A stretch of 64,000 nt of DNA from Dechloromonas sp. (GTDB lineage Bacteria; Pseudomonadota; Gammaproteobacteria; Burkholderiales; Rhodocyclaceae). The DNA is taken from assembly GCA_008933675.1 (NCBI GenBank), contig WBUO01000001.1, positions 19,239-83,238 on the forward strand, given 5' to 3'. Positions 19,078 to 28,493 of the stretch are shown here, piece by piece (the stretch's first letter is position 1; every line of letters starts with the position of its first letter). The notes below the pieces were generated by a model. It made no database searches, was not told the DNA's origin, and was given only the letters and a program-made list of their open reading frames with translations. The position numbers and the translations under genes were made by a program.

Positions 19078-19104
19078 TTAGCACTCGTCGTCGGTGAGTG
19101 CTAA
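19078..19104. promoter_or_regulatory. CIRCE operator (HrcA site)
   Basis: Perfect TTAGCACTC-N9-GAGTGCTAA upstream of groS. Confidence 0.95.
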
Positions 19105-19149: not shown

Positions 19150-19237
19150 TGTTCCGTGGTAGGAGGGAAATTTGATTTCGGGATTCTGGCAACTAGAAAT
19201 CGGGATTCTGGCAACTAGAAATTGGGAACGGTGCAAT
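19150..19237 (+). repeat. Left-hand terminal repeat array of 22-bp units (putative transposase-binding sites)
   Basis: cgggattctggcaactagaaat is exactly duplicated (19179-19200, 19201-19222), with degenerate units in the same 22-bp phase starting at the terminal TG (19150). Confidence 0.8.
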
Positions 19238-19368
19238 TCTCCCGGCCGTAGCACGGCGAGTGATCGCCGGTGTAGGGCGCCGTAAGATTTCGACAATAAA
19301 AAAAATTATTTGTCGGCAGTCGTTCGGCGGATGTCTTCGCTTCGCCGTCGGCGCATCATTTTCATCGG

Positions 19369-21120
19369 TTACGGCATGATCATGGTGCGGCCGCTATCGA
19401 TGTCCATCCTCACGCGTGGATTGGTGTTCGATGCGATCACGGCGGCCGGTTCGCCCTTCACGACGACCTCGATCCGCCCATCGAGCTCGGCACGGCTCTT
19501 CTCACGGTAGGCGGCAAACTCGGCTTCCTTATTGAATCCAACGCCGTGAAGGATTTTGCGGAGCGTCTCAGAAACCCCGGATAGCGCATTGACGCGGTTG
19601 CCGTCATTCGATGTGTCGCCCGCCCATTGCGAAACGCCGTACATCAATGCCAACGGGGCTGCGGCCATCCCAATATTTCCGGCCATCCGGAATCCGCCTT
19701 TGGCGGTCGGAATCTTGGCGGCCGGTTTTCCTCCTGGCAAACCAGGAATATCCGTGCCTCCGATGGAGGCGGGCCAGTTGACCACGAAGACAGGGGTTAC
19801 TCCGGCGGCGGCTTCGAGAGCCTTTCCCTGGGCAACGCCAGCAGCGGTTCCGCCGAACTTGTTCATCAGCCCGGAAATGGCTTTCCCGCCGTAACGAGAA
19901 GCGCCGAAGATGCCCAAGGCCCCTAAAGCGCCGCCAGCCAACATGTCTTTCCCGTCCAGTTCCAGCCCGCCGTTTTCCTTCTTCTCGAGACCCCAGTTCA
20001 CAAGGTTGGTAAACGCGTCGTTGATCGGTTGGGCAAACTCGTCGGCGGCAAGGCCGAGAACGCCGCGCAGTCTTTCAGCTGCAACTGCGGCATTGTTGAT
20101 TGACTCCTGAATGTCCCGGCCAGTGCTACCTGCCGCAGTGCTGATAGCTTTCTCGACCGGGCCAAACTTGTCGAGGAGTCCCGTGAGCAAGGCGCGCTGT
20201 CCCTCGATGGTGTCTTTGTCGGCACCGCCGAACGCCATGTCGAGGGCTTTCATCTGCTGGGCGTCCGTCTTGAACCGCTTGAACTTTTCCTGCATCTCGC
20301 GCAGCACCTGAATCGGGTCGCGGTTCATGCCGTTCTCGTCAGTGAATTTAACGCCTGACGCCTTTTCTGCCTTGTCCCGATAATCCTTGATGGTGAACAC
20401 GCGCAGAGTGGATTCCGCCAACGTCGACAGCCGTTCAGGGTTGGGCTGAACAAGGGACAACGTCTCAATGAATGCCAGCGTCTGATCCAGATTCATCCCG
20501 GCGGCCTTGGCCGACCCGCCTACCGTAGCGAACAGGGCGGGCAGGTTGCTCAGTTCTGCAAAACCTTGCTCACCGGCAACCTTCATCTTGTCGAGAACAA
20601 GGCGAGCCTGTTCTATGTCTCGCAGGTCGATTTTGAAATGCTCTTTGACAACACCCAAGGCTTTCGCGAGATCGGCCGCATTGGTCTTTGCCGTTGCCAT
20701 CACTTCGGCAATTGGTCCGATGGTCGCCCTTGCTTCTGTAAGGCTGGCGCCGCCCGCGACCAGGGCGTCAACCCCTTGCCGAAGGGTATCGGTGGACTGA
20801 CCGGTTTGGCGCTGCAGGTCGTAGAGTTCCTTGCGCAAGCCGCCAATTGCCTCGGACGTGGCGCCGGTGGTGTTCTTGAGGTATTGCAGCTCCTTATCCA
20901 GCGCTGCTGACTTCACGATGGTAGCCACGGCGCCGACGGTCAGGCCAAGAGAGGCGAACTGCCCTTGCACGCTGCCTATCATGCCCTTCAAAGCGTCGAA
21001 CTCCTGGCGGGCGCCTCTACCGAAGCGCCGAACGCCGCCTTCGGCTTGGGTCAGGCCAGCCACGAAGCGCGATGCATCTGCATGCAGCCTTACCGCCAGT
21101 GACATGTCTCGGGTGCTCAT
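19369..21120 (-). CDS. Phage tail tape-measure protein
   Basis: 583 aa, Ala/Gly-rich and helical. Starts MSTRDMSLAVRLHADASRFVAGL; core KMKVAGEQGFAELSNL resembles the TP901-type tape-measure core. Confidence 0.8.
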   Translation of the reverse strand: MSTRDMSLAVRLHADASRFVAGLTQAEGGVRRFGRGARQEFDALKGMIGSVQGQFASLGLTVGAVATIVKSAALDKELQYLKNTTGATSEAIGGLRKELYDLQRQTGQSTDTLRQGVDALVAGGASLTEARATIGPIAEVMATAKTNAADLAKALGVVKEHFKIDLRDIEQARLVLDKMKVAGEQGFAELSNLPALFATVGGSAKAAGMNLDQTLAFIETLSLVQPNPERLSTLAESTLRVFTIKDYRDKAEKASGVKFTDENGMNRDPIQVLREMQEKFKRFKTDAQQMKALDMAFGGADKDTIEGQRALLTGLLDKFGPVEKAISTAAGSTGRDIQESINNAAVAAERLRGVLGLAADEFAQPINDAFTNLVNWGLEKKENGGLELDGKDMLAGGALGALGIFGASRYGGKAISGLMNKFGGTAAGVAQGKALEAAAGVTPVFVVNWPASIGGTDIPGLPGGKPAAKIPTAKGGFRMAGNIGMAAAPLALMYGVSQWAGDTSNDGNRVNALSGVSETLRKILHGVGFNKEAEFAAYREKSRAELDGRIEVVVKGEPAAVIASNTNPRVRMDIDSGRTMIMP

Positions 21121-21223
21121 TTTGGCCTCTCAGCGTGAATGGGTTACAGCCATGGGTCGAGGGCCATTGAGACGCTATGGCTGCTCTTGCGTCTCTGGCG
21201 TTACTCAGAGGAGGATTCCCAAG

Positions 21224-21778
21224 CTATTCGGTGATGCCGGCGCTCGTCAGCTGGCTGGCAAGTTCGTCGCGCTTGCTGATCAGCTCGTCCATTTGCTGAT
21301 CGATTTCGGCAATGCGCTTGCGGCGCTCATCAATCGGCATGCCGCCTTCCTGCCAGGCGTGTGCAGTGTCCATGGCATCCATGAAGCGTTCGGCAATCAA
21401 GTCACCGAAATACCAATAGAAGGCACCCGGTGAGATATTGAAGCCGTCGAAGCATTCATCGCCATTCATGTACGGAAATTGCTGAGACTGGCCGGCGTTG
21501 TGGACGCGCTCCAGGGCACCAAAGCTCAGATTGAGATTGGCTCCGCTGGTTTTTCCGCCCCGGGCGAAACGACGCAATTGATTCAGGAACGGGCCACAGC
21601 GCCGGGAGATATCAGCCTTCACATAGGCGGCGTAATCCGCCCGGCTGACGGGCGCATCGATCAACGCCTGGCGTTCATGATTCAGCTGGTTGATTTGCTC
21701 ATCCAGTGCCTGGATTTCGGTCTTGACCGATTCAGCAACCTTTTTTAGCTTGCCCAGAATGTTGGTCAGTTCAGACAT
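21224..21778 (-). CDS. Hypothetical 184-aa protein with N- and C-terminal coiled coils
   Basis: Heptad segments EIQALDEQINQLNHERQALI and RIAEIDQQMDELISKRDELASQL flank an aromatic central region; overlaps the upstream 60-aa ORF. Confidence 0.75.
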   Translation of the reverse strand: MSELTNILGKLKKVAESVKTEIQALDEQINQLNHERQALIDAPVSRADYAAYVKADISRRCGPFLNQLRRFARGGKTSGANLNLSFGALERVHNAGQSQQFPYMNGDECFDGFNISPGAFYWYFGDLIAERFMDAMDTAHAWQEGGMPIDERRKRIAEIDQQMDELISKRDELASQLTSAGITE

Positions 21779-21953
21779 GTTGCTGCTCCTGGTCGATTTG
21801 ACTGGCCGCCGCTTTGGAAAATGCTTTCGAAAACGGCTCGATTACGCGGACTTCCAAGAGCGGCGCGGCTTCCGCGCTGGAGAGTTCGATTACATCCCCG
21901 GTGTTGTAGGTCTGATGGTTGAAGTCAATACGGCTCAGTGCTCGATATTTCAT
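21771..21953 (-). CDS. Small 60-aa phage-type protein (possible head-associated domain)
   Basis: MKYRALSRIDFNHQTYNTGDVIELSSAEAAPLLEVRVIE resembles small domains found in phage head modules; good RBS (ggagcaacgttatg). Confidence 0.55.
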   Translation of the reverse strand: MKYRALSRIDFNHQTYNTGDVIELSSAEAAPLLEVRVIEPFSKAFSKAAASQIDQEQQHV

Positions 21954-21970
21954 AACGTTGCTCCTTCGGA

Positions 21971-22726
21971 TTATTTGCGGTGTTGCGTAACGTGATTGAC
22001 GGCTTGGAGGCTGGTGACAAAAGTACCGGCGGCAGCCATCGACTCCTGGTAGGCCAGTGCCGCAGTGGCAATGTCTTGGGCGGATGCCGGCTTGCTGCTC
22101 TGGGCCCGGGAAATGCTGCTCAACTGCTGTTGCTGGCTGACGTGGCTGACGGCCTGGACGCTGGTGACAAAAGTACCGGCGGCAGCCATCGACTCCTGAT
22201 AGGCCAGCGCCGCAGTGGCAATTTCTTGAGCCGTTGCCGGTTGGCCGTGCAGACGACGGGAGGCGGCGGCCAGGTCGGTCAAGCCGTCAAGGGCGGGGTT
22301 GTTCGTCAAGGCAATGTTGATGATGTCCAGAACCCGCCCGGCATCGTCATGGTGGAAGGTAGGGGAAATGAACCGATATTCCTTGGCGCGGATCATTGCC
22401 GATGCCCGTTCCGTCCATCGTGCGTCGGTCACATAGAGTCCGTCACCCTCCCGCCATTCCAAACGCTTGAACCACCCGGCCGCCGGATTCGGCTGGCCGT
22501 TGCTGGCCGTGTTGAGCGTCTGGTGCTCGTAGTCGATGACGTAGTCACCGAACCGGGCGGCGGCCAGCTTGACGATAGACAGCGCCTCAGGGCGGTTGAG
22601 TTGCCAGCCTTGAAGCCCGTGGGGGCGGCCATCGGATGCCGAGAAGCGGCCAGCCGGCATGATTCGGAAGGCGGCTAAGGGGGCGGTAAGCGGTTGGGTA
22701 GAGCAATTGGCGAGTAGTGTTCTCAT
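21971..22726 (-). CDS. Mu gpI-like prohead protease with a duplicated C-terminal motif
   Basis: IMPAGRF...DGRP, VIDYEHQT, PAAGW, WTERA...I..KEYRFISPTF and ALTNNPAL are Mu-like protease I motifs. Confidence 0.85.
   Translation of the reverse strand: MRTLLANCSTQPLTAPLAAFRIMPAGRFSASDGRPHGLQGWQLNRPEALSIVKLAAARFGDYVIDYEHQTLNTASNGQPNPAAGWFKRLEWREGDGLYVTDARWTERASAMIRAKEYRFISPTFHHDDAGRVLDIINIALTNNPALDGLTDLAAASRRLHGQPATAQEIATAALAYQESMAAAGTFVTSVQAVSHVSQQQQLSSISRAQSSKPASAQDIATAALAYQESMAAAGTFVTSLQAVNHVTQHRK
21990..22228 (-). repeat. Two ~89-bp direct repeats at 150-bp spacing inside the protease gene
   Basis: 21990-22078 and 22140-22228 encode Q(E/D)IATAALAYQESMAAAGTFVTS(V/L)QAV(S/N)HV twice. Confidence 0.9.
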
Positions 22727-22735
22727 GACGCCTCG

Positions 22736-23068
22736 TTACGGTGTTTTCTTCGGAGCTTCGGCGTGGCGCATGTCGCGCGCCCGCCAAAGAATTTGCCGAA
22801 TTCGCATGGTCGATAGGCCGTGTTTCTGTGCCAGCTCGGCATGGTTTCGCCCGTTGAACTCAGCGATGATTTGCTGATCCCGGTTGCGGGTCTTGCCATT
22901 GGCGCCGGAGGGGATGTAAAGCGCTTGCCCCTTCCAGTGCTGCCGCATCTTCTCGGCAATCGAGATGGCTTTCTGACTGGCGTCAGGTGCGCCAATGCCT
23001 TCCTTGACGAACTCTTGCTCCAATTGAATGGCAAGGTCTTCAAGCAGGCCGTCTGCGCTCAAGTCCAT
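22736..23068 (-). CDS. Mor/C-family transcription activator
   Basis: HWKGQALYIP...RNRDQQIIAEFNGRNHAELAQKHGLSTMRIRQIL is the Mor family signature. Confidence 0.9.
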   Translation of the reverse strand: MDLSADGLLEDLAIQLEQEFVKEGIGAPDASQKAISIAEKMRQHWKGQALYIPSGANGKTRNRDQQIIAEFNGRNHAELAQKHGLSTMRIRQILWRARDMRHAEAPKKTP

Positions 23069-23108
23069 TTTTCCCCTTCCGTTGTATTCGGTTGGGGCTA
23101 TCGTGCCG

Positions 23109-23142
23109 CTCGGTAAAGGGCTTTACCGAGTAAAGGGCTTTA
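23109..23142. promoter_or_regulatory. Palindromic/tandem operator candidate upstream of mor
   Basis: ctcggtaaag-gg-ctttaccgag dyad (23109-23130); the core taaagggcttta occurs at 23114 and again at 23131. Confidence 0.5.
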
Positions 23143-23483
23143 GTAAGTTGATGGGGGCTGCCGTGGCATCGTTTGCGGCGCAGGCGGCAAGCGATCTACC
23201 TTTTACCCATCTCGGGGATTGCCGAGCACCGCGAGTGCCAGCCGCCTGCCCCGAATTTCGATAAACTGCTCCTGCAGCTCGCCGGAGTGTCAGGAAAAGC
23301 GCCGTCTGACATCATGGGGCTTCGGGCCTGATGGTCATGCGGGAGTGCCTGGTTCGACCAGGATGGTGTCCCGCCCGGCGAGTCTGCATCTTTCCCCTCA
23401 TCTGGTAACGCCCGAGAACCGCGTTAATGGTGCGTTAATTTCGATTTTCGCGGGTCGGTTGGTATCTCGGGTCCAACTGGAAA

Positions 23484-23518
23484 GAAAAAACCGCCAGAGA
23501 GCGATTCTGGCGGTTTTT
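23484..23518. terminator. Intrinsic terminator ending the early operon of the element
   Basis: aaaaaaccgccagag...ttctggcggttttt hairpin with A/T tracts on both sides. Confidence 0.75.
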
Positions 23519-23547
23519 GTAGCACGCGATCGTCGAGAAAACTCTTC

Positions 23548-23724
23548 TCATGTAAATCGCGGATCGTTTTGGGGTTGCATGCTTGCCTGTTGCCGCTGCA
23601 ATCGGCTTGATAGCGGCTTTATAAGCGTACTGCCAATCCGAAATGAAAATGCACCGCTCAGGACTGTTGCCAGTTCGGCTATAGGCTGGTGAATTTGGTG
23701 GTCATTTGGTCTTGTTGTTTGCAT
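23548..23724 (-). CDS. Small 58-aa hypothetical ORF, last gene of the early operon (below the ORF-track cutoff)
   Basis: Manual translation MQTTRPNDHQIHQPIAELATVLSGAFSFRIGSTLIKPLSSRLQRQQASMQPQNDPRFT*. Lies 25 bp after gemA, has an AAGG RBS, and ends just before the terminator. Confidence 0.4.
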   Translation of the reverse strand: MQTTRPNDHQIHQPIAELATVLSGAFSFRIGSTLIKPLSSRLQRQQASMQPQNDPRFT

Positions 23725-23749
23725 GGTCGATTGCCTTTTGTGTGATTGA

Positions 23750-24172
23750 TCAGTTTTTCTTCTGTTTCGCGTGCAGCCATCCCTCTAATCCGTTGATCAG
23801 GCTGGCCATGCCGTGCCGGTCGAGAAAACGGGGGCTGTGTACTTTGCATACGCGCTTGCAGAAGGTGATCAAGGCTGGATCGTGGGCCGCGCCGGACATA
23901 CCCAGCTTCTTGGAGAGGTCGAGCGCGTAGCGCCATTGGTGCTGTGTTGGTTGCTCTGGATTGCCGGAGTCGGGCAGCGGTGCGGCAGGATTGGGGGCGA
24001 GAGCACCGAGGTCGCGTAACAGGTCAACGAGCATGGACAACTGCGCGTCACTGCAGGCCTTGCTGCTGCGCTGGCCGGTGTGTTTCTGCATCCAGGCGCG
24101 GCGAGTGTCCTCATCCCAGCCCAGGCGCTTAGTACCGGCGTGCAGCATCTTGTTGAGGGCGACGCGGTTCAT
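23750..24172 (-). CDS. GemA/gp16-like (DUF1018) Mu-type regulatory protein
   Basis: LHAGTKRLGWDEDTRRAWMQKHTGQRSSKACSDAQLSMLVDLL...LINGLEGW; ATGA overlap with the ATPase. Confidence 0.8.
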   Translation of the reverse strand: MNRVALNKMLHAGTKRLGWDEDTRRAWMQKHTGQRSSKACSDAQLSMLVDLLRDLGALAPNPAAPLPDSGNPEQPTQHQWRYALDLSKKLGMSGAAHDPALITFCKRVCKVHSPRFLDRHGMASLINGLEGWLHAKQKKN

Positions 24173-25185
24173 GGCTTGCCCCGCTTGTTGGCTTTGCCGG
24201 ACAAATCGGGCTTGAGCTGCTCGGCCAGCTTTTGGAGAAGCCCGGCATCCACCTGAACGCCATACATCTTTTCGGCAATGCGGAAGACGTCAGCCAGGGC
24301 GCGTAGGCCGCCGTTTTGTTCGGGGCGGCAAGCGATGCTGCAGGCGACTTCGGTCAGCTTCTTGCGCTCAGCCGGCGTCATGCCATTGCCGGCGCCGCGC
24401 CAGGCCAGCCAGGCGTCGACGTCTTCTTCGGTGGTGGCGGCGAAATCGTAGCGATTGGCGCGGCTGGCCAGGCGGGCAAATTTGGTGCTCTTGCCCCAGA
24501 CCATGCCGCTTAAATCGGGGTTGCCTTGCATCACGATGGAGATGTCCACGGCGTCGTGGATGCTGGCCACAACGTTCAACGCTTCGCCTAGGAGCTGGCA
24601 TTCATCCAGGATCAATTGGTCTCCGGGGCGCAGGGCCGATGTGACGCCGCCCATGAGATTGCCGTTTCGATAGGCGTGGCTCGGGGCGTTGAGGTGCAGG
24701 GCGATTTTTGCCAGGGCGGCGGCCGGCTTGGCGTCGCCTTCGTCGAACTGGATGCGCACGGCGCCCGGCTGGCTGTGAGTGCGGGGATGGCTGGCACAGT
24801 AAAAGCGTGCCGCCTCGCTTTTACCAATGCCCCAGGCGCCAGTAATGGCCAGGAAAAAGCCACCTTGCTGGGCTTGGGTGTAAAGGTTTTGCAGGTGGGT
24901 GAAGGTCGGCGTGATGGCGTAGCCGGCATCGTCGGCGCCGCCTTTTTGTTCGCTTTCGAGCCATGCGGCTAATGCCTGAATGGCTTCGGTGGTGTCTTCG
25001 TCCTGAAGGTTGCCGTATTGGCGAATCGGCTGCCCTGCAATGATGCGGTTTAACGCCGCTTCGTCAACGCCGGAGAGCCAGGCGATTTTGGTTCGGGTGA
25101 AGCCCGATGCCAGACGGGATTCAACTTGCTGCAAGATGGCTTTCTGTGGGTCGGTAAACACGTCTTCCCGATGTTTGTATAGCAT
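24169..25185 (-). CDS. MuB-like AAA+ transposition ATPase
   Basis: N-terminal HTH, Walker A GAWGIGKS, Walker B LILDECQ and an R-finger region (RLASRA); directly follows the transposase. Confidence 0.88.
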   Translation of the reverse strand: MLYKHREDVFTDPQKAILQQVESRLASGFTRTKIAWLSGVDEAALNRIIAGQPIRQYGNLQDEDTTEAIQALAAWLESEQKGGADDAGYAITPTFTHLQNLYTQAQQGGFFLAITGAWGIGKSEAARFYCASHPRTHSQPGAVRIQFDEGDAKPAAALAKIALHLNAPSHAYRNGNLMGGVTSALRPGDQLILDECQLLGEALNVVASIHDAVDISIVMQGNPDLSGMVWGKSTKFARLASRANRYDFAATTEEDVDAWLAWRGAGNGMTPAERKKLTEVACSIACRPEQNGGLRALADVFRIAEKMYGVQVDAGLLQKLAEQLKPDLSGKANKRGKP

Positions 25186-25196
25186 GGCGCTCTTCC

Positions 25197-27425
25197 TTAT
25201 GACTTGGCGGTTATGAGGGCTTTTAATGGGTCAAAGGCCGGGGATTCCCGGCTTAGCTTTTGTGCTTCCAGGGCTGGGGGCGCAAATCTCAGCGGGTCAA
25301 AGTCGATGGCGGTCGGCTTTGGCCCGCTTTCATTGATGGGCTGCATGTCGATGATGTGGCCCTCGGTGGGGTGCCGTAATTGCCCTGGTAGCAGCTTGGC
25401 CGGGGCTGGGAGTTGCATGGCGGCTAGCGCGTCGCCGATGGCTTCGCCTTCGGCGGTGGTGATGAGTGGACCATCCGGCAGCGTGGGCGCCGGAGGAAGT
25501 TCGGCATTAACGCGGACGGCTTCGGTCAGCAGATTGAGGGTTTTGGTTTGCCCCTTGAGTTGCTGTACATGGGCAAGTTTCAGGCCGTTAAGGCGCGATT
25601 GTTCCTTGGCGCCTTGGCCATCTTCCTGTGCGTAGGCGTCCGCTTGGGGAATTGCATGCAGTTGCCCGCTATCGTCCAAATAGAACAAGGCTTCACGCGC
25701 CCATTTGGCATAGCGGATTTCGACGGTTTGGCCGATCAACGGGACGATGATGTCGGCGCGGTACCAGGTCTTAATTCCGCGTTCCTCAACGACGAGGCCG
25801 CCCGTTTTGACCTTGATTTTGCGGATCTCGGAGAAGGCAAAAATCAGGTCGTGCCGGGAGACTCGGACAGCTCGCCAACCTTCTTCAATGGCCTTGCGTC
25901 GCTTGTCATTCGGGCTGCTGCCATCCTTTTGGGCGGTGTTGCGGTAGAGGTCGAGACATGTCCTGATATCGTGGGCAAAGTCGTCATCGGCGCCACGGTA
26001 GGCCTTTGGTTCCTGGCCAACCAGTTGTGTCCGCTTGTTCATGCGGTCACCGCCAACCCAACCAGGCATCAGTGAGAAAAACTGATATTCGACGATGGCA
26101 AAAACGTGCTCAATCTGTTTGGCTGGGGCGTTGTAAGGGCGAGCCCTCGATATCGCGGCGAACTGCTCACCATCGATCAATTCGGCTGCTTCACCTTTGC
26201 CCATGATGCTGACGTGAAAGGCCTGAAAGGCACTGACCAGGCCGGCCAGCGCCTGAAACCCTTTGATCATGGCATCCCATTTGTATTCCTTGCCGTTGTC
26301 CAGGCGTAGCTGTTTCGGAAGTCCCCAGGCTTGCACCATGTCAACGAAGGATGCGGCGATGTCGGCCTGTGTGATGCCTTTTCCGGGCGGGAGAATGACC
26401 ACGGTAACGAACAGGTCATAGGTGGCCACGTCCAGCCAGGAAATCAGGCGTGCATGGACCGTCCGGCCGTCGATCTCTCTGGCCACGTCCATCGGGTGGA
26501 CGTCGCCAATGACAATGTCGCTGGGCTTGTAACCATTACGATGCCGCTGAACGCGTGGCATCTGGGTGTCGAAAAAGCGCTTAGCGTTCTTTTCCTTGAG
26601 TGCGACCAAGGCGAATTCACGGAATTTTTCGACAAAGGGGCGGCCGGGTTCGCAACTCTTCAGCGTGGCGCCATCCCAGCCCGCAAGTCGGCATTGCTCC
26701 AGGAGTTCAACGCTGGCGAGCTGGTTGACGCGCTTCCAGCCGGGCGCACCTTCTTTCCACAGTGTTTTTACGTGGGTTTCCATGTGGGCGGCGATTTCAG
26801 CCTTTTTGTCGTTGGCCAACGGACATGCCTTGTCCCACGCCCGCGAAATCAGCACGCGGGGCGCACTTTCCTTACGGCGCTTTCGTTGCAAGGCCTGTTC
26901 GCCCTGTTCTTCGACGATTTTCAGCCAGGCTTCGAGGGTGCTAACGGCCGGCCTCCACGGCTTGCCGTTGGGCTTGGTGGTTTCCTTGGCAGCCGTGGCT
27001 TTCAAGGCCTCCCCTCGTTCCTTGCTGAACTTGGGGAATTGCAGCGCGTCGGCCAGCAACTCGAGCCGCCAGCGCCATAGCGCGTAGTCATCGGAAATTC
27101 TTGCGCTGTAGCGTCCTGGCGATGGGAGCGTTACTGATTCAGCTTCCTGAAGGGCGTGGCATGCCTGGTAACGCTTGTGCCAAATATCGCGCAAATCGGC
27201 GGGCAGACTAGGGCCGTAGGCTTGCAATGCGTTGCCTTCATAGCGTGCCATGAGGTCAACGCCTCGCCACTGCGCTCCCGATATGGCGGCAGTTAATGTC
27301 CGCCTCGCTTGACGTTCAGACAGGCCGGACAGCGCAGCGAATACCGATGTTGGTATCCATACGGATTCCCCGTTTGTGGCCGGTGGAATTTGGGGCAGGT
27401 TTCTTCTTGCTGCAGCGGATGACAC
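25197..27425 (-). CDS. MuA-like DDE transposase
   Basis: 742 aa; candidate triad GDVHPMD / RLDNGKEY / AKQIEHVF; GTG start abutting the ner-like gene. Confidence 0.88.
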   Translation of the reverse strand: MSSAAARRNLPQIPPATNGESVWIPTSVFAALSGLSERQARRTLTAAISGAQWRGVDLMARYEGNALQAYGPSLPADLRDIWHKRYQACHALQEAESVTLPSPGRYSARISDDYALWRWRLELLADALQFPKFSKERGEALKATAAKETTKPNGKPWRPAVSTLEAWLKIVEEQGEQALQRKRRKESAPRVLISRAWDKACPLANDKKAEIAAHMETHVKTLWKEGAPGWKRVNQLASVELLEQCRLAGWDGATLKSCEPGRPFVEKFREFALVALKEKNAKRFFDTQMPRVQRHRNGYKPSDIVIGDVHPMDVAREIDGRTVHARLISWLDVATYDLFVTVVILPPGKGITQADIAASFVDMVQAWGLPKQLRLDNGKEYKWDAMIKGFQALAGLVSAFQAFHVSIMGKGEAAELIDGEQFAAISRARPYNAPAKQIEHVFAIVEYQFFSLMPGWVGGDRMNKRTQLVGQEPKAYRGADDDFAHDIRTCLDLYRNTAQKDGSSPNDKRRKAIEEGWRAVRVSRHDLIFAFSEIRKIKVKTGGLVVEERGIKTWYRADIIVPLIGQTVEIRYAKWAREALFYLDDSGQLHAIPQADAYAQEDGQGAKEQSRLNGLKLAHVQQLKGQTKTLNLLTEAVRVNAELPPAPTLPDGPLITTAEGEAIGDALAAMQLPAPAKLLPGQLRHPTEGHIIDMQPINESGPKPTAIDFDPLRFAPPALEAQKLSRESPAFDPLKALITAKS

Positions 27426-27426
27426 A

Positions 27427-27621
27427 TCACACCTCGACGATATCGCCGTTCTTTAGTCCAAGGAGGACGGCAATTCTGTGAGCCTTCCCGCGATAGCACT
27501 TGGCCTCGCCGTTAAGGACGCGGTGCACGGCCAGTCTCGTGAAACCGTTTGAGCGAGCCCAGCCTGTTATGGTGATTCCCTTCTGACGGAATTCAGTCTT
27601 TACCTGTTCGGCGGTCTTCAT
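27427..27621 (-). CDS. Ner/Cro-like DNA-binding protein (BcepMu gp16-like)
   Basis: MKTAEQVKTEFRQKGITITGWARSNGF...VLNG..KCYRGKAHRIAVLLGLK; first early gene, divergent from the repressor. Confidence 0.85.
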   Translation of the reverse strand: MKTAEQVKTEFRQKGITITGWARSNGFTRLAVHRVLNGEAKCYRGKAHRIAVLLGLKNGDIVEV

Positions 27622-27666
27622 TTACGCTACCTCTCAACAATCAGATTTGTATCACAAGGGATTCAA

Positions 27667-28167
27667 TTGAATATCACTTTGCCGGGCTTTGCAAGCGGAG
27701 ATGACTCCTTTCCAGTCGCGCTTGGTCGCCGGATACGGGAGGTTAGAGAGGCAAAACGCTTGAGCCAGCGCGAATTTGGCGCATTGGGCGGTGTGCTGAA
27801 ACTTGCCCAGATGAACTATGAAAGAGGTGTTCGTGTGCCTTCAGCCGAATACCTATATTCGCTGAGTCTTCATGGCATCGATACCCACTACCTGCTGACA
27901 GGCAAAAGGAGTGGCGATGCAGTGGCGAATCTCCCCGGTATTGATGGGCAGATGCTGGCAGCGAGCGTGGACACCGTCTGGCGGTTTTCCAAGGATGCGA
28001 TCCCCGCATTAAGCAGCGAGGACTTTGCGCGTTGCGTTAGCTTGTTGTACTCGGCTCTTTCGCTCGTCGGACGTAAGGTGACCCGCAAGACAGCGGACGA
28101 ACTTGGTGTGTTGCTGGTTACTACCTTTATTGCAGGCTTGGATCGGAAGCCGGATGGCCGCAAGTGA
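27667..28167 (+). CDS. XRE-family repressor (Mu c-like position), no peptidase domain
   Basis: LGRRIREVREAKRLSQREFGALGGV...NYERGVRVPSAEYL...GIDTHYLLTG. The start codon is uncertain. Confidence 0.85.
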   Translation: MNITLPGFASGDDSFPVALGRRIREVREAKRLSQREFGALGGVLKLAQMNYERGVRVPSAEYLYSLSLHGIDTHYLLTGKRSGDAVANLPGIDGQMLAASVDTVWRFSKDAIPALSSEDFARCVSLLYSALSLVGRKVTRKTADELGVLLVTTFIAGLDRKPDGRK

Positions 28168-28431
28168 TGGCCGCTTATGTCCGCAAGCGCTTTCTAATAT
28201 GCCCCTGTTTTTTCCTCTAACCCGCGCCACAACGTGGTTTCGAGCGATGTCCGCAAACTTCGCAATCCCCCGTGGGCTCGTGGTGTGGCTTGCTGGTGCC
28301 CTTGTTCGTTTTGAATCGCGTTTGGGCTAGAAACTGTGCGGTATTCCGAGCTTTTTGCTTGAACGTGTACCAGAAATTTGCAAAGTGCCGAGGTGGGGCC
28401 ACCAAGCTCCAACCCGCTTAAATACTGGGCA

Positions 28432-28493
28432 CGGTTCCAGTTTAATTGTTGCCAGCGTTCCAGATTTCAAACACCACCCCTAGTGGCGGAGCA
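28432..28493 (-). repeat. Right-hand terminal inverted repeat of the element
   Basis: Reverse complement TGCTCCG...TTGAAATCTGGAACGCTGGCAAC...GGAACCGTGC mirrors the left end TGTTCCG...TTGATTTCGGGATTCTGGCAAC...GGAACGGTGC. Confidence 0.7.

Follow-up and report, generated by a model that had tools for sequence, protein, structure and literature searches.

To our knowledge, tape measure proteins (TMPs) encoded by satellites were unknown before the work on PLEs, which are satellites found in Vibrio cholerae. Every PLE encodes a TMP alongside a chaperone and a baseplate hub. In virions this TMP takes the place of that of ICP1, giving chimeric contractile tails; the tails are 10 nm shorter, and deletion of the PLE tmp gene cuts transduction by 96-99.9% (bioRxiv 10.1101/2025.01.29.635557; PMC12987554). 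A TMP without tail proteins is also reported for the EPIP satellites of Mycolicibacterium aichiense, for which the authors suggest TMP-mediated tail hijacking (PMC12822802). The present study concerns a 64,000-nucleotide stretch of DNA from Dechloromonas sp. (contig WBUO01000001.1; hereafter the window), in which a Mu-type element of 9,323 bp (positions 19160-28482) ends with an intact gene for a TMP of 583 amino acids and carries no gene for a tail tube, sheath, chaperone or baseplate. Our analysis suggests, with confidence somewhat short of even, that this element may be a natural mini-Mu satellite whose TMP replaces the TMP of a helper phage in chimeric tails.

Comparison of the element with the described systems revealed both likenesses and differences. 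Like the element, PLE (PLE11, PLE1 and PLE4) lacks tube, sheath and fibre genes and has its own TMP. Unlike the element, PLE brings a tail assembly chaperone and a hub along with its TMP, and the element, with the TMP only, therefore does not have the gene set of the PLE type. The PLE TMP is 95 amino acids shorter than that of its helper, with about 20% identity, whereas the element TMP has a length normal for its family and 44-58% identity to its relatives in full phages. PLE integrates by means of a recombinase, while the element carries Mu-type A and B transposition genes. The element may thus work like PLE, yet it is no PLE relative. EPIP satellites are siphovirus-type and integrase-based and are associated with much longer tails; they show no sequence kinship to the element, for which no change in tail length is expected. 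A TMP of the same family and length, of the gp42 type, is encoded by a Mu-like myophage on JGI contig Ga0216365_100171 (L004). It is 51-52% identical to the element TMP over the full length, with a conserved N-terminus and two internal blocks common to both proteins. The L004 TMP, however, sits between Gp41 and the DNA-circulation and baseplate genes of a 40-kb phage, whereas the element TMP stands alone, immediately ahead of the end of the transposon, and falls in a different clade. Laboratory mini-Mu is an internally deleted, transposition-competent Mu that is complemented by helper Mu and packaged by the helper with flanking host DNA. It resembles the element in its short length, its two Mu-type ends and its A and B genes; the element differs in being part of a natural, diversified family with selected virion cargo (TMP, an N-terminal prohead protease domain and capsid), TA ends and a 4-bp repeat. 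A literature search found no publications on Mu-type transposable satellites.

The TMP gene starts with ATG and has no internal stop codon. Its product scored 79.5 bits against the Pfam profile PF10145 (PhageMin_Tail), for which the cut-off is 33.2, and also matched eight PHROG families described as tail length tape measure. A search of 5.8 billion protein clusters identified hundreds of homologues of 585-620 amino acids, with 100% query coverage and the identities given above. In Mu-like myophages (contexts L004, L006 and L007) these homologues occupy a constant slot in the order sheath, tube, Gp41 chaperone, TMP, DNA-circulation protein and baseplate, and the homology of the element TMP to the proteins lying between Gp41 and DNA_circ_N extends over the full length. 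Because the homologues align throughout and occupy the canonical TMP slot, the 583-amino acid gene is a full-length tape measure and not a fragment. These results agree with the first-pass annotation, which had described an intact, stand-alone frame as the last gene of a small Mu-type element. Its placement of the stop codon near the terminus is also correct, although the distance is 208 bp by alignment across elements and not about 220 bp.

Members of the TMP family range from 578 to 784 amino acids (median 609), and the normal range for the relatives in full phages is 578-626. Since 583 amino acids fall inside this range, no changed tail length is expected, or a change of a few nanometres at most. 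The first-pass annotation had proposed that the element TMP may build chimeric tails by replacing that of the helper, possibly altering length or evading exclusion or tail-assembly inhibitors, or may poison helper tail assembly. The replacement has its precedent in PLE; the altered length was rejected on the basis of the family length distribution, as the full-phage TMPs of Mu-like kin are of the same size. An escape from inhibitors and a poisoning of helper tails are both possible.

Analysis along the protein showed that residues 1-60, 211-240 and 421-450 agree at 80-90% with the full-phage consensus, while residues 61-180 and 241-360 carry group-specific differences, each conserved inside either the mini-element group or the full-phage group. 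Conserved blocks combined with a diverged core fit a protein that still docks onto helper parts. Conservation with full-phage TMPs also covers a Gly-rich hydrophobic segment at about residues 390-500. TMPs form the DNA conduit during injection, and this property together with the hydrophobic segment would suit a moonlighting role in the membrane, where the TMP would block DNA entry of related phages (superinfection exclusion) or help the DNA of the element itself to enter or integrate. The gene lies in a late operon led by Mor, apart from the lysogeny genes, and such a role appears highly improbable.

Selection on the gene was estimated from four distinct TMPs of 583 amino acids. Pairwise dN/dS (omega) was 0.08-0.14 at dS of 0.15-0.70, and the four genes differed by no indel. 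Omega in windows of 97 codons was 0.00-0.27 across the whole gene, and the overall values were as low as those of the transposase A (0.14) and of B (0.13). No frameshift or stop was found in any mini-element copy of TMP, and all the listed genes of the element are open frames, with omega of 0.06-0.40 for those tested. By these estimates, the mini-element TMPs are under strong purifying selection (omega of about 0.1). Relaxed selection across homologs, which the first-pass annotation had named as an observation that would speak against its proposal, was thus not seen. Phylogenetic analysis of 63 homologues placed all mini-element TMPs, the distant P0003 among them, in one clade (SH-aLRT 100) on a long stem (0.44), separate from the clade that holds the known full-phage TMPs. 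A TMP of more than 58% identity was not found in any full-length phage among about 15 billion proteins. Nor does the INPHARED phage collection contain a close TMP; its best match is 38% identical and located on unannotated gut contigs.

The same TMP is the last gene of no fewer than four other distinct elements, spread over at least three other sites, and the 90% cluster of the TMP and its nearest neighbours all derive from small elements that end alike. The family as a whole, counted with the related elements that lack a TMP, likewise recurs at several sites (L003, L005, L025-27, L029, L031, L034-37 and L038/39). Comparison of the window with L026 by blastn showed 92.5% identity from the left end through Mor, followed by a completely different cassette before the TMP; the two then agree again, at 84-90%, across the 70-bp leader, the TMP and the right end. 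The cassettes swapped at this position are protease-N (the N-terminal domain of the prohead protease) with DUF7210 and the 184-amino acid protein; a 214-amino acid protein with protease-N; a C-like activator with gpT; and gpT with a 72-amino acid protein. The leader and the right end (attR) remain constant. In the distant lineage (58% identity), L038 and L039 agree for about 115 bp past the TMP stop, up to ...GCGCTACA, and are unrelated from there on; the TMP is thus terminal here too, in an element found at two sites. A TMP-based search for related loci gave none in genome contigs or viral contigs and only L039 in metagenome contigs, and pattern scans for the right end in genome and viral contigs gave only chance matches.

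Sister mini-elements that lack a TMP are 7-8 kb long and end either with the gpT major capsid gene (L029) or with protease-N, DUF7210 and the 184-amino acid protein (L031 and L034-37). L034 has a canonical, Pfam-recognisable Mu transposase, and the same late cartridge therefore rides on different transposition modules. Since the sisters vary in their late genes, the TMP is an exchangeable late cartridge, one among several, on a mini-Mu chassis of 7-9 kb. The nucleotide identity between the window and L003 is uneven, with 66-77% for MuB, GemA and the protease and 90-95% for A, Mor and TMP, from which it follows that recombination is common. This mosaicism would suit an explanation in which mini-elements exchange the TMP with co-resident full phages and the selection seen on the gene acts in those phages. 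We regard such gene flow as very unlikely: the mini-element TMPs are monophyletic, they have the leader and attR junctions in common, and no full-phage TMP was found above the identity limit already given.

The same data bear on the possibility that the element is a decaying prophage, in which the TMP would be a functionless passenger left by internal deletions in a once-complete Mu-like prophage. The gene content does resemble what serial deletions in the Mu late region would leave (I ... T ... TMP), the protease has been truncated, the RNA-like motif beside attR is broken in the window and the element is present as a single stable copy at the depth of its flanks. Against this stand omega values of about 0.1 at dS of up to 0.7, the absence of frameshifts and stops from all copies, the open frames of all the listed genes, the recurrence of the same junctions with different cassettes and insertion sites, and a deep, monophyletic clade for which no full-length parent is known. 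The remnant explanation is therefore strongly disfavoured. Overall, these data show that an apparently functional TMP has long been maintained on small transposable elements incapable of building a tail.

The tail partners of the TMP were sought on the element and in the host. Profile searches and comparisons with Gp41 found no tube, sheath, chaperone or baseplate gene beside the TMP, as the first-pass annotation had noted, and none elsewhere on the element. The neighbours of the TMP (the 184-amino acid protein, the 60-amino acid frame, protease-N and Mor) show no resemblance to the Gp41 chaperone, and a hidden chaperone among them was rejected on this ground. No adjacent frameshifted chaperone pair was found upstream of the TMP, and the 103-bp gap before the gene has no open reading frame of 50 or more amino acids on the coding strand. 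The element does not carry the complete-phage set (portal, MuF, major capsid, sheath, tube, baseplate and fibres), although no separate search was made for terminase and lysis genes. In the host assembly, which consists of 531 contigs and is rated 100% complete, there is no PF04984 sheath, tblastn with the L004 sheath, tube, Gp41, DNA-circulation and baseplate proteins gave no homologue, and no second A or TMP homologue is present. A resident helper was accordingly rejected. With no sheath and no homologue of a myophage tail module in the host, the partners must come from outside.

Two further regions were considered in this connection. Contig C197 (L028, 11.6 kb) of the host assembly holds a B3/D3112-like siphoviral head and tail module that is cut at both contig ends. 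It encodes a MuF-like protein, a protease (phrog_976), a major head protein (phrog_1005), an adaptor, a neck protein and a TMP that differs in type from that of the element. Another genome of the same bacterial family, G148, has the canonical module of sheath, tube, Gp41, TMP, DNA-circulation and baseplate genes; as a model helper its prophage was rejected, with no A, B or gpT found nearby and ends unlike those of the element.

The element has its own regulation and integration or replication and lacks most virion genes, as satellites do, and with so few virion genes it makes no particles of its own. Dependence on a helper is the most economical explanation, and the element is most likely a satellite of a full-size Mu-like myophage. 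Helper dependence, late expression and incorporation into tails, which we infer, would proceed as follows. When a helper grows in the cell, Mor would switch on the late operon of Mor, protease-N, DUF7210, the 184-amino acid protein and TMP. The element TMP would use the chaperone, hub, tube and sheath of the helper and would be built into tails in place of the helper TMP, giving chimeric tails that would benefit transfer of the element, possibly hurt the helper, or both. The payoff of a private TMP could be escape from targeting of the helper TMP, a selective label for satellite tails, or interference directed at the helper.

Several observations weigh against this reading. The chaperone and hub genes are both lacking on the element, unlike in PLE. 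The TMP has the same length as full-phage TMPs, which leaves no obvious structural reason for a private ruler. TMP-less sister mini-elements exist (L029, L031 and L034) and manage without the gene, so the TMP is not essential to this type of element, and the mini-TMP clade is rare, with about five distinct elements known. No helper phage was found in the host assembly, where the sole other phage region, that of C197, is siphoviral with a TMP of more than 1115 amino acids. Contigs from the source bioanode metagenome cross both junctions at the depth of the flanks, which indicates one stable copy. Finally, the TA termini and the 4-bp repeat mean that the transposition chemistry is not that of textbook Mu.

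The lack of a chaperone or hub partner would also suit a non-productive competitor. In such a case the TMP, like the stripped protease, would act by interference only, as a dominant-negative spare part, made upon infection, that poisons the tail assembly of related Mu-like phages to the advantage of the host or the element and never enters an infectious particle. Purifying selection and conserved docking segments are compatible with a protein that still binds helper tail parts, satellites commonly disturb the assembly of their helpers, and Rta of PLE targets the TMP. However, selection is uniform over 583 amino acids including the central ruler, with no indel in four genes, which is more than a poison would need; the element has no match to known defence families; and PLE shows that a satellite TMP can be productive. 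Pure interference is unlikely. Replacement of the helper TMP in chimeric tails by the TMP of a mini-Mu satellite remains our preferred reading. A wider proposal, which we consider possible but doubtful, is that the element represents an undescribed class of satellites that combines Mu-type transposition with swappable hijacking cartridges and in which the TMP alone takes over helper tail assembly. The proposed cartridges are the scaffold-less protease with coiled-coil partners, a private major capsid and a private tape measure, and satellite particles would carry a satellite-specific ruler or DNA-conduit protein. If the proposal of a TMP-bearing mini-Mu satellite is true, this is a second, unrelated lineage with the TMP only, and stealing the ruler slot of the helper tail is a recurrent strategy. 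The element would then offer a minimal system for studying how one TMP wins over another in tail assembly, and, with natural mini-Mu satellites, transposition would join the known integration and amplification routes of satellites.

Table 1. Features of the Mu-type element in the window and gene order of related TMP-bearing elements.
Feature	Positions	Strand	Remarks
4-bp direct repeat GTGG	19156..19159	.	Abuts right end; other copy 28483-28486
Right end (attR-like)	19160..19231	-	Terminal ...CCCTCCTA-3'; three phased 22-bp repeats (putative transposase sites)
Remnant of structured-RNA-like motif	19228..19270	-	43 nt, 100% identical to L003/L025-27
Tape measure protein (TMP)	19369..21120	-	583 aa, intact, last gene of the element
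TMP leader	21121..21194	-	~70 bp; kept in all TMP-bearing mini-elements regardless of upstream cassette
Coiled-coil protein	21224..21778	-	184 aa
Open reading frame	21771..21953	-	60 aa, weak DUF7210 match
Mu gpI-type prohead protease	21971..22726	-	N-domain only, 251 aa, duplicated C-terminal tail
Mor/C-type late transcription activator	22736..23068	-	
GemA-like protein	23750..24172	-	
MuB-like AAA+ transposition ATPase	24169..25185	-	
Mu-type transposase	25197..27425	-	Likely start 27251, giving 684 aa
Ner-like HTH protein	27427..27621	-	64 aa; basis L026 orthologue, phrog_925
Repressor (HTH)	27667..28167	+	Divergent from early operon
Left end (attL-like)	28429..28482	+	Reverse complement starts TAGGGGTGGTGTTTGAAATCTGGAACGCTGGCAAC; mirrors right end
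L003			A - B - GemA - 160 aa - Mor - 214 aa - protease-N - TMP - end
L005			protease-N - TMP - end, then SlipAM-like host gene
L025-27			Repressor - Ner - A - B - GemA - Mor - second Mor/C-like - complete gpT major capsid - TMP - end - groES
L038/L039			Distant lineage (P0003, 58% identity): gpT - 72 aa - TMP

The termini of the element were set by aligning independent copies, which diverge exactly at the element ends. The right end is conserved between the window, L003, L005 and L025-27 up to ...CCTCCTA (AAATTTCCCTCCTA), after which the flanks are unlike, and the left end begins with TAGGGGTG... in the window and in L025-27. The two ends are related inverted sequences with 22-bp phased repeats. 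The flanking 4-bp repeat was found in both complete, unrearranged copies, as GTGG (+ strand) in the window and CCGG in L025/L026. GC content across 18-29 kb is 56-60%, down from about 65%. Between its inverted ends the element follows the Mu order of repressor/Ner, A, B, GemA and Mor, and the only genes after Mor are protease-N, DUF7210, the 184-amino acid protein and TMP. The canonical Mu ends, TG...CA with a 5-bp target duplication, were not found, and the ends read TAGG...CCTA with the 4-bp repeat. Candidate TG..CA ends at 19150/28493 were rejected, as conservation of the independent copies stops at 19160/28482. The transposase has no Pfam match even at lenient thresholds; it can be recognised solely through PHROG 310 and through distant homologues that carry PF09299. 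The divergent transposase, the TA termini and the 4-bp repeat point to a divergent Mu-type transposition system.

Analysis of the remaining late genes gave the following observations. The 184-amino acid protein belongs to a small family (18 proteins in 5.8 billion), which in all the contexts examined (L031-L037) occurs after protease-N and DUF7210, either on a mini-Mu element or on a short contig. The 3' end of the protease-N gene contains a 150-bp tandem duplication (21981-22245, 86% identity), giving two copies of a peptide of about 35 amino acids (AQEIATAALAYQESMAAAGTFVTS...); the duplicated peptide stands in place of the scaffold half of full-length gpI. A repeated CCAT-N-ATGG dyad, considered as a candidate shared late-promoter motif, was found only upstream of the TMP. 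Among the related elements, L027 has the same element and groES right flank as L026, with a different left flank (L027:1-474) and no matching 4-bp repeat; it is either a left-end rearrangement or a second copy collapsed in assembly. The IMG/VR contig L045 (4.3 kb) has GemA, gpT, orf136 and protease-N in this order on the same strand, with the RNA-like motif on the opposite strand between GemA and gpT, and may be another rearranged mini-element.

The RNA-like motif is about 115 nt long and is complete between TMP and attR in L003 (7943-8070) and L026 (11763-11890), whereas it is truncated in the window. Its core, CCGTGCTACGGCCGGGAGAAT, occurs exactly in 13 IMG/VR contigs (L040-L052). In most of these 13 the motif lies 70-100 nt downstream of MuF, and the MuF proteins of these diverse Mu-like phages are only 33-68% identical. 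RNAalifold predicted 28 pairs for the motif, 12 of them with compensatory changes. Rfam 15 contains no family that matches the element or the motif of about 115 nt.

About 25 bp separate the right end of the element from the -35 box of the groESL promoter, which is located downstream of it. This promoter has a sigma-32-like -35 box (CTTGAAA) and a -10 box (CCCCTATT), followed by a perfect CIRCE element (TTAGCACTC-N9-GAGTGCTAA) at 19078-19104. In three genomes of the same genus without the element, the distance from groES to the chemoreceptor gene varies between 4.4 and 15 kb and homology ends about 20 bp before 19160; as the region upstream of groES is variable, there is no clean empty site. 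The L025/L026 element is inserted within 2 bp of the same groESL position, with a different 4-bp repeat, which suggests that the position is a hot spot or a selected site. The elements of the window and L026 are both oriented with the late operon reading towards groES.

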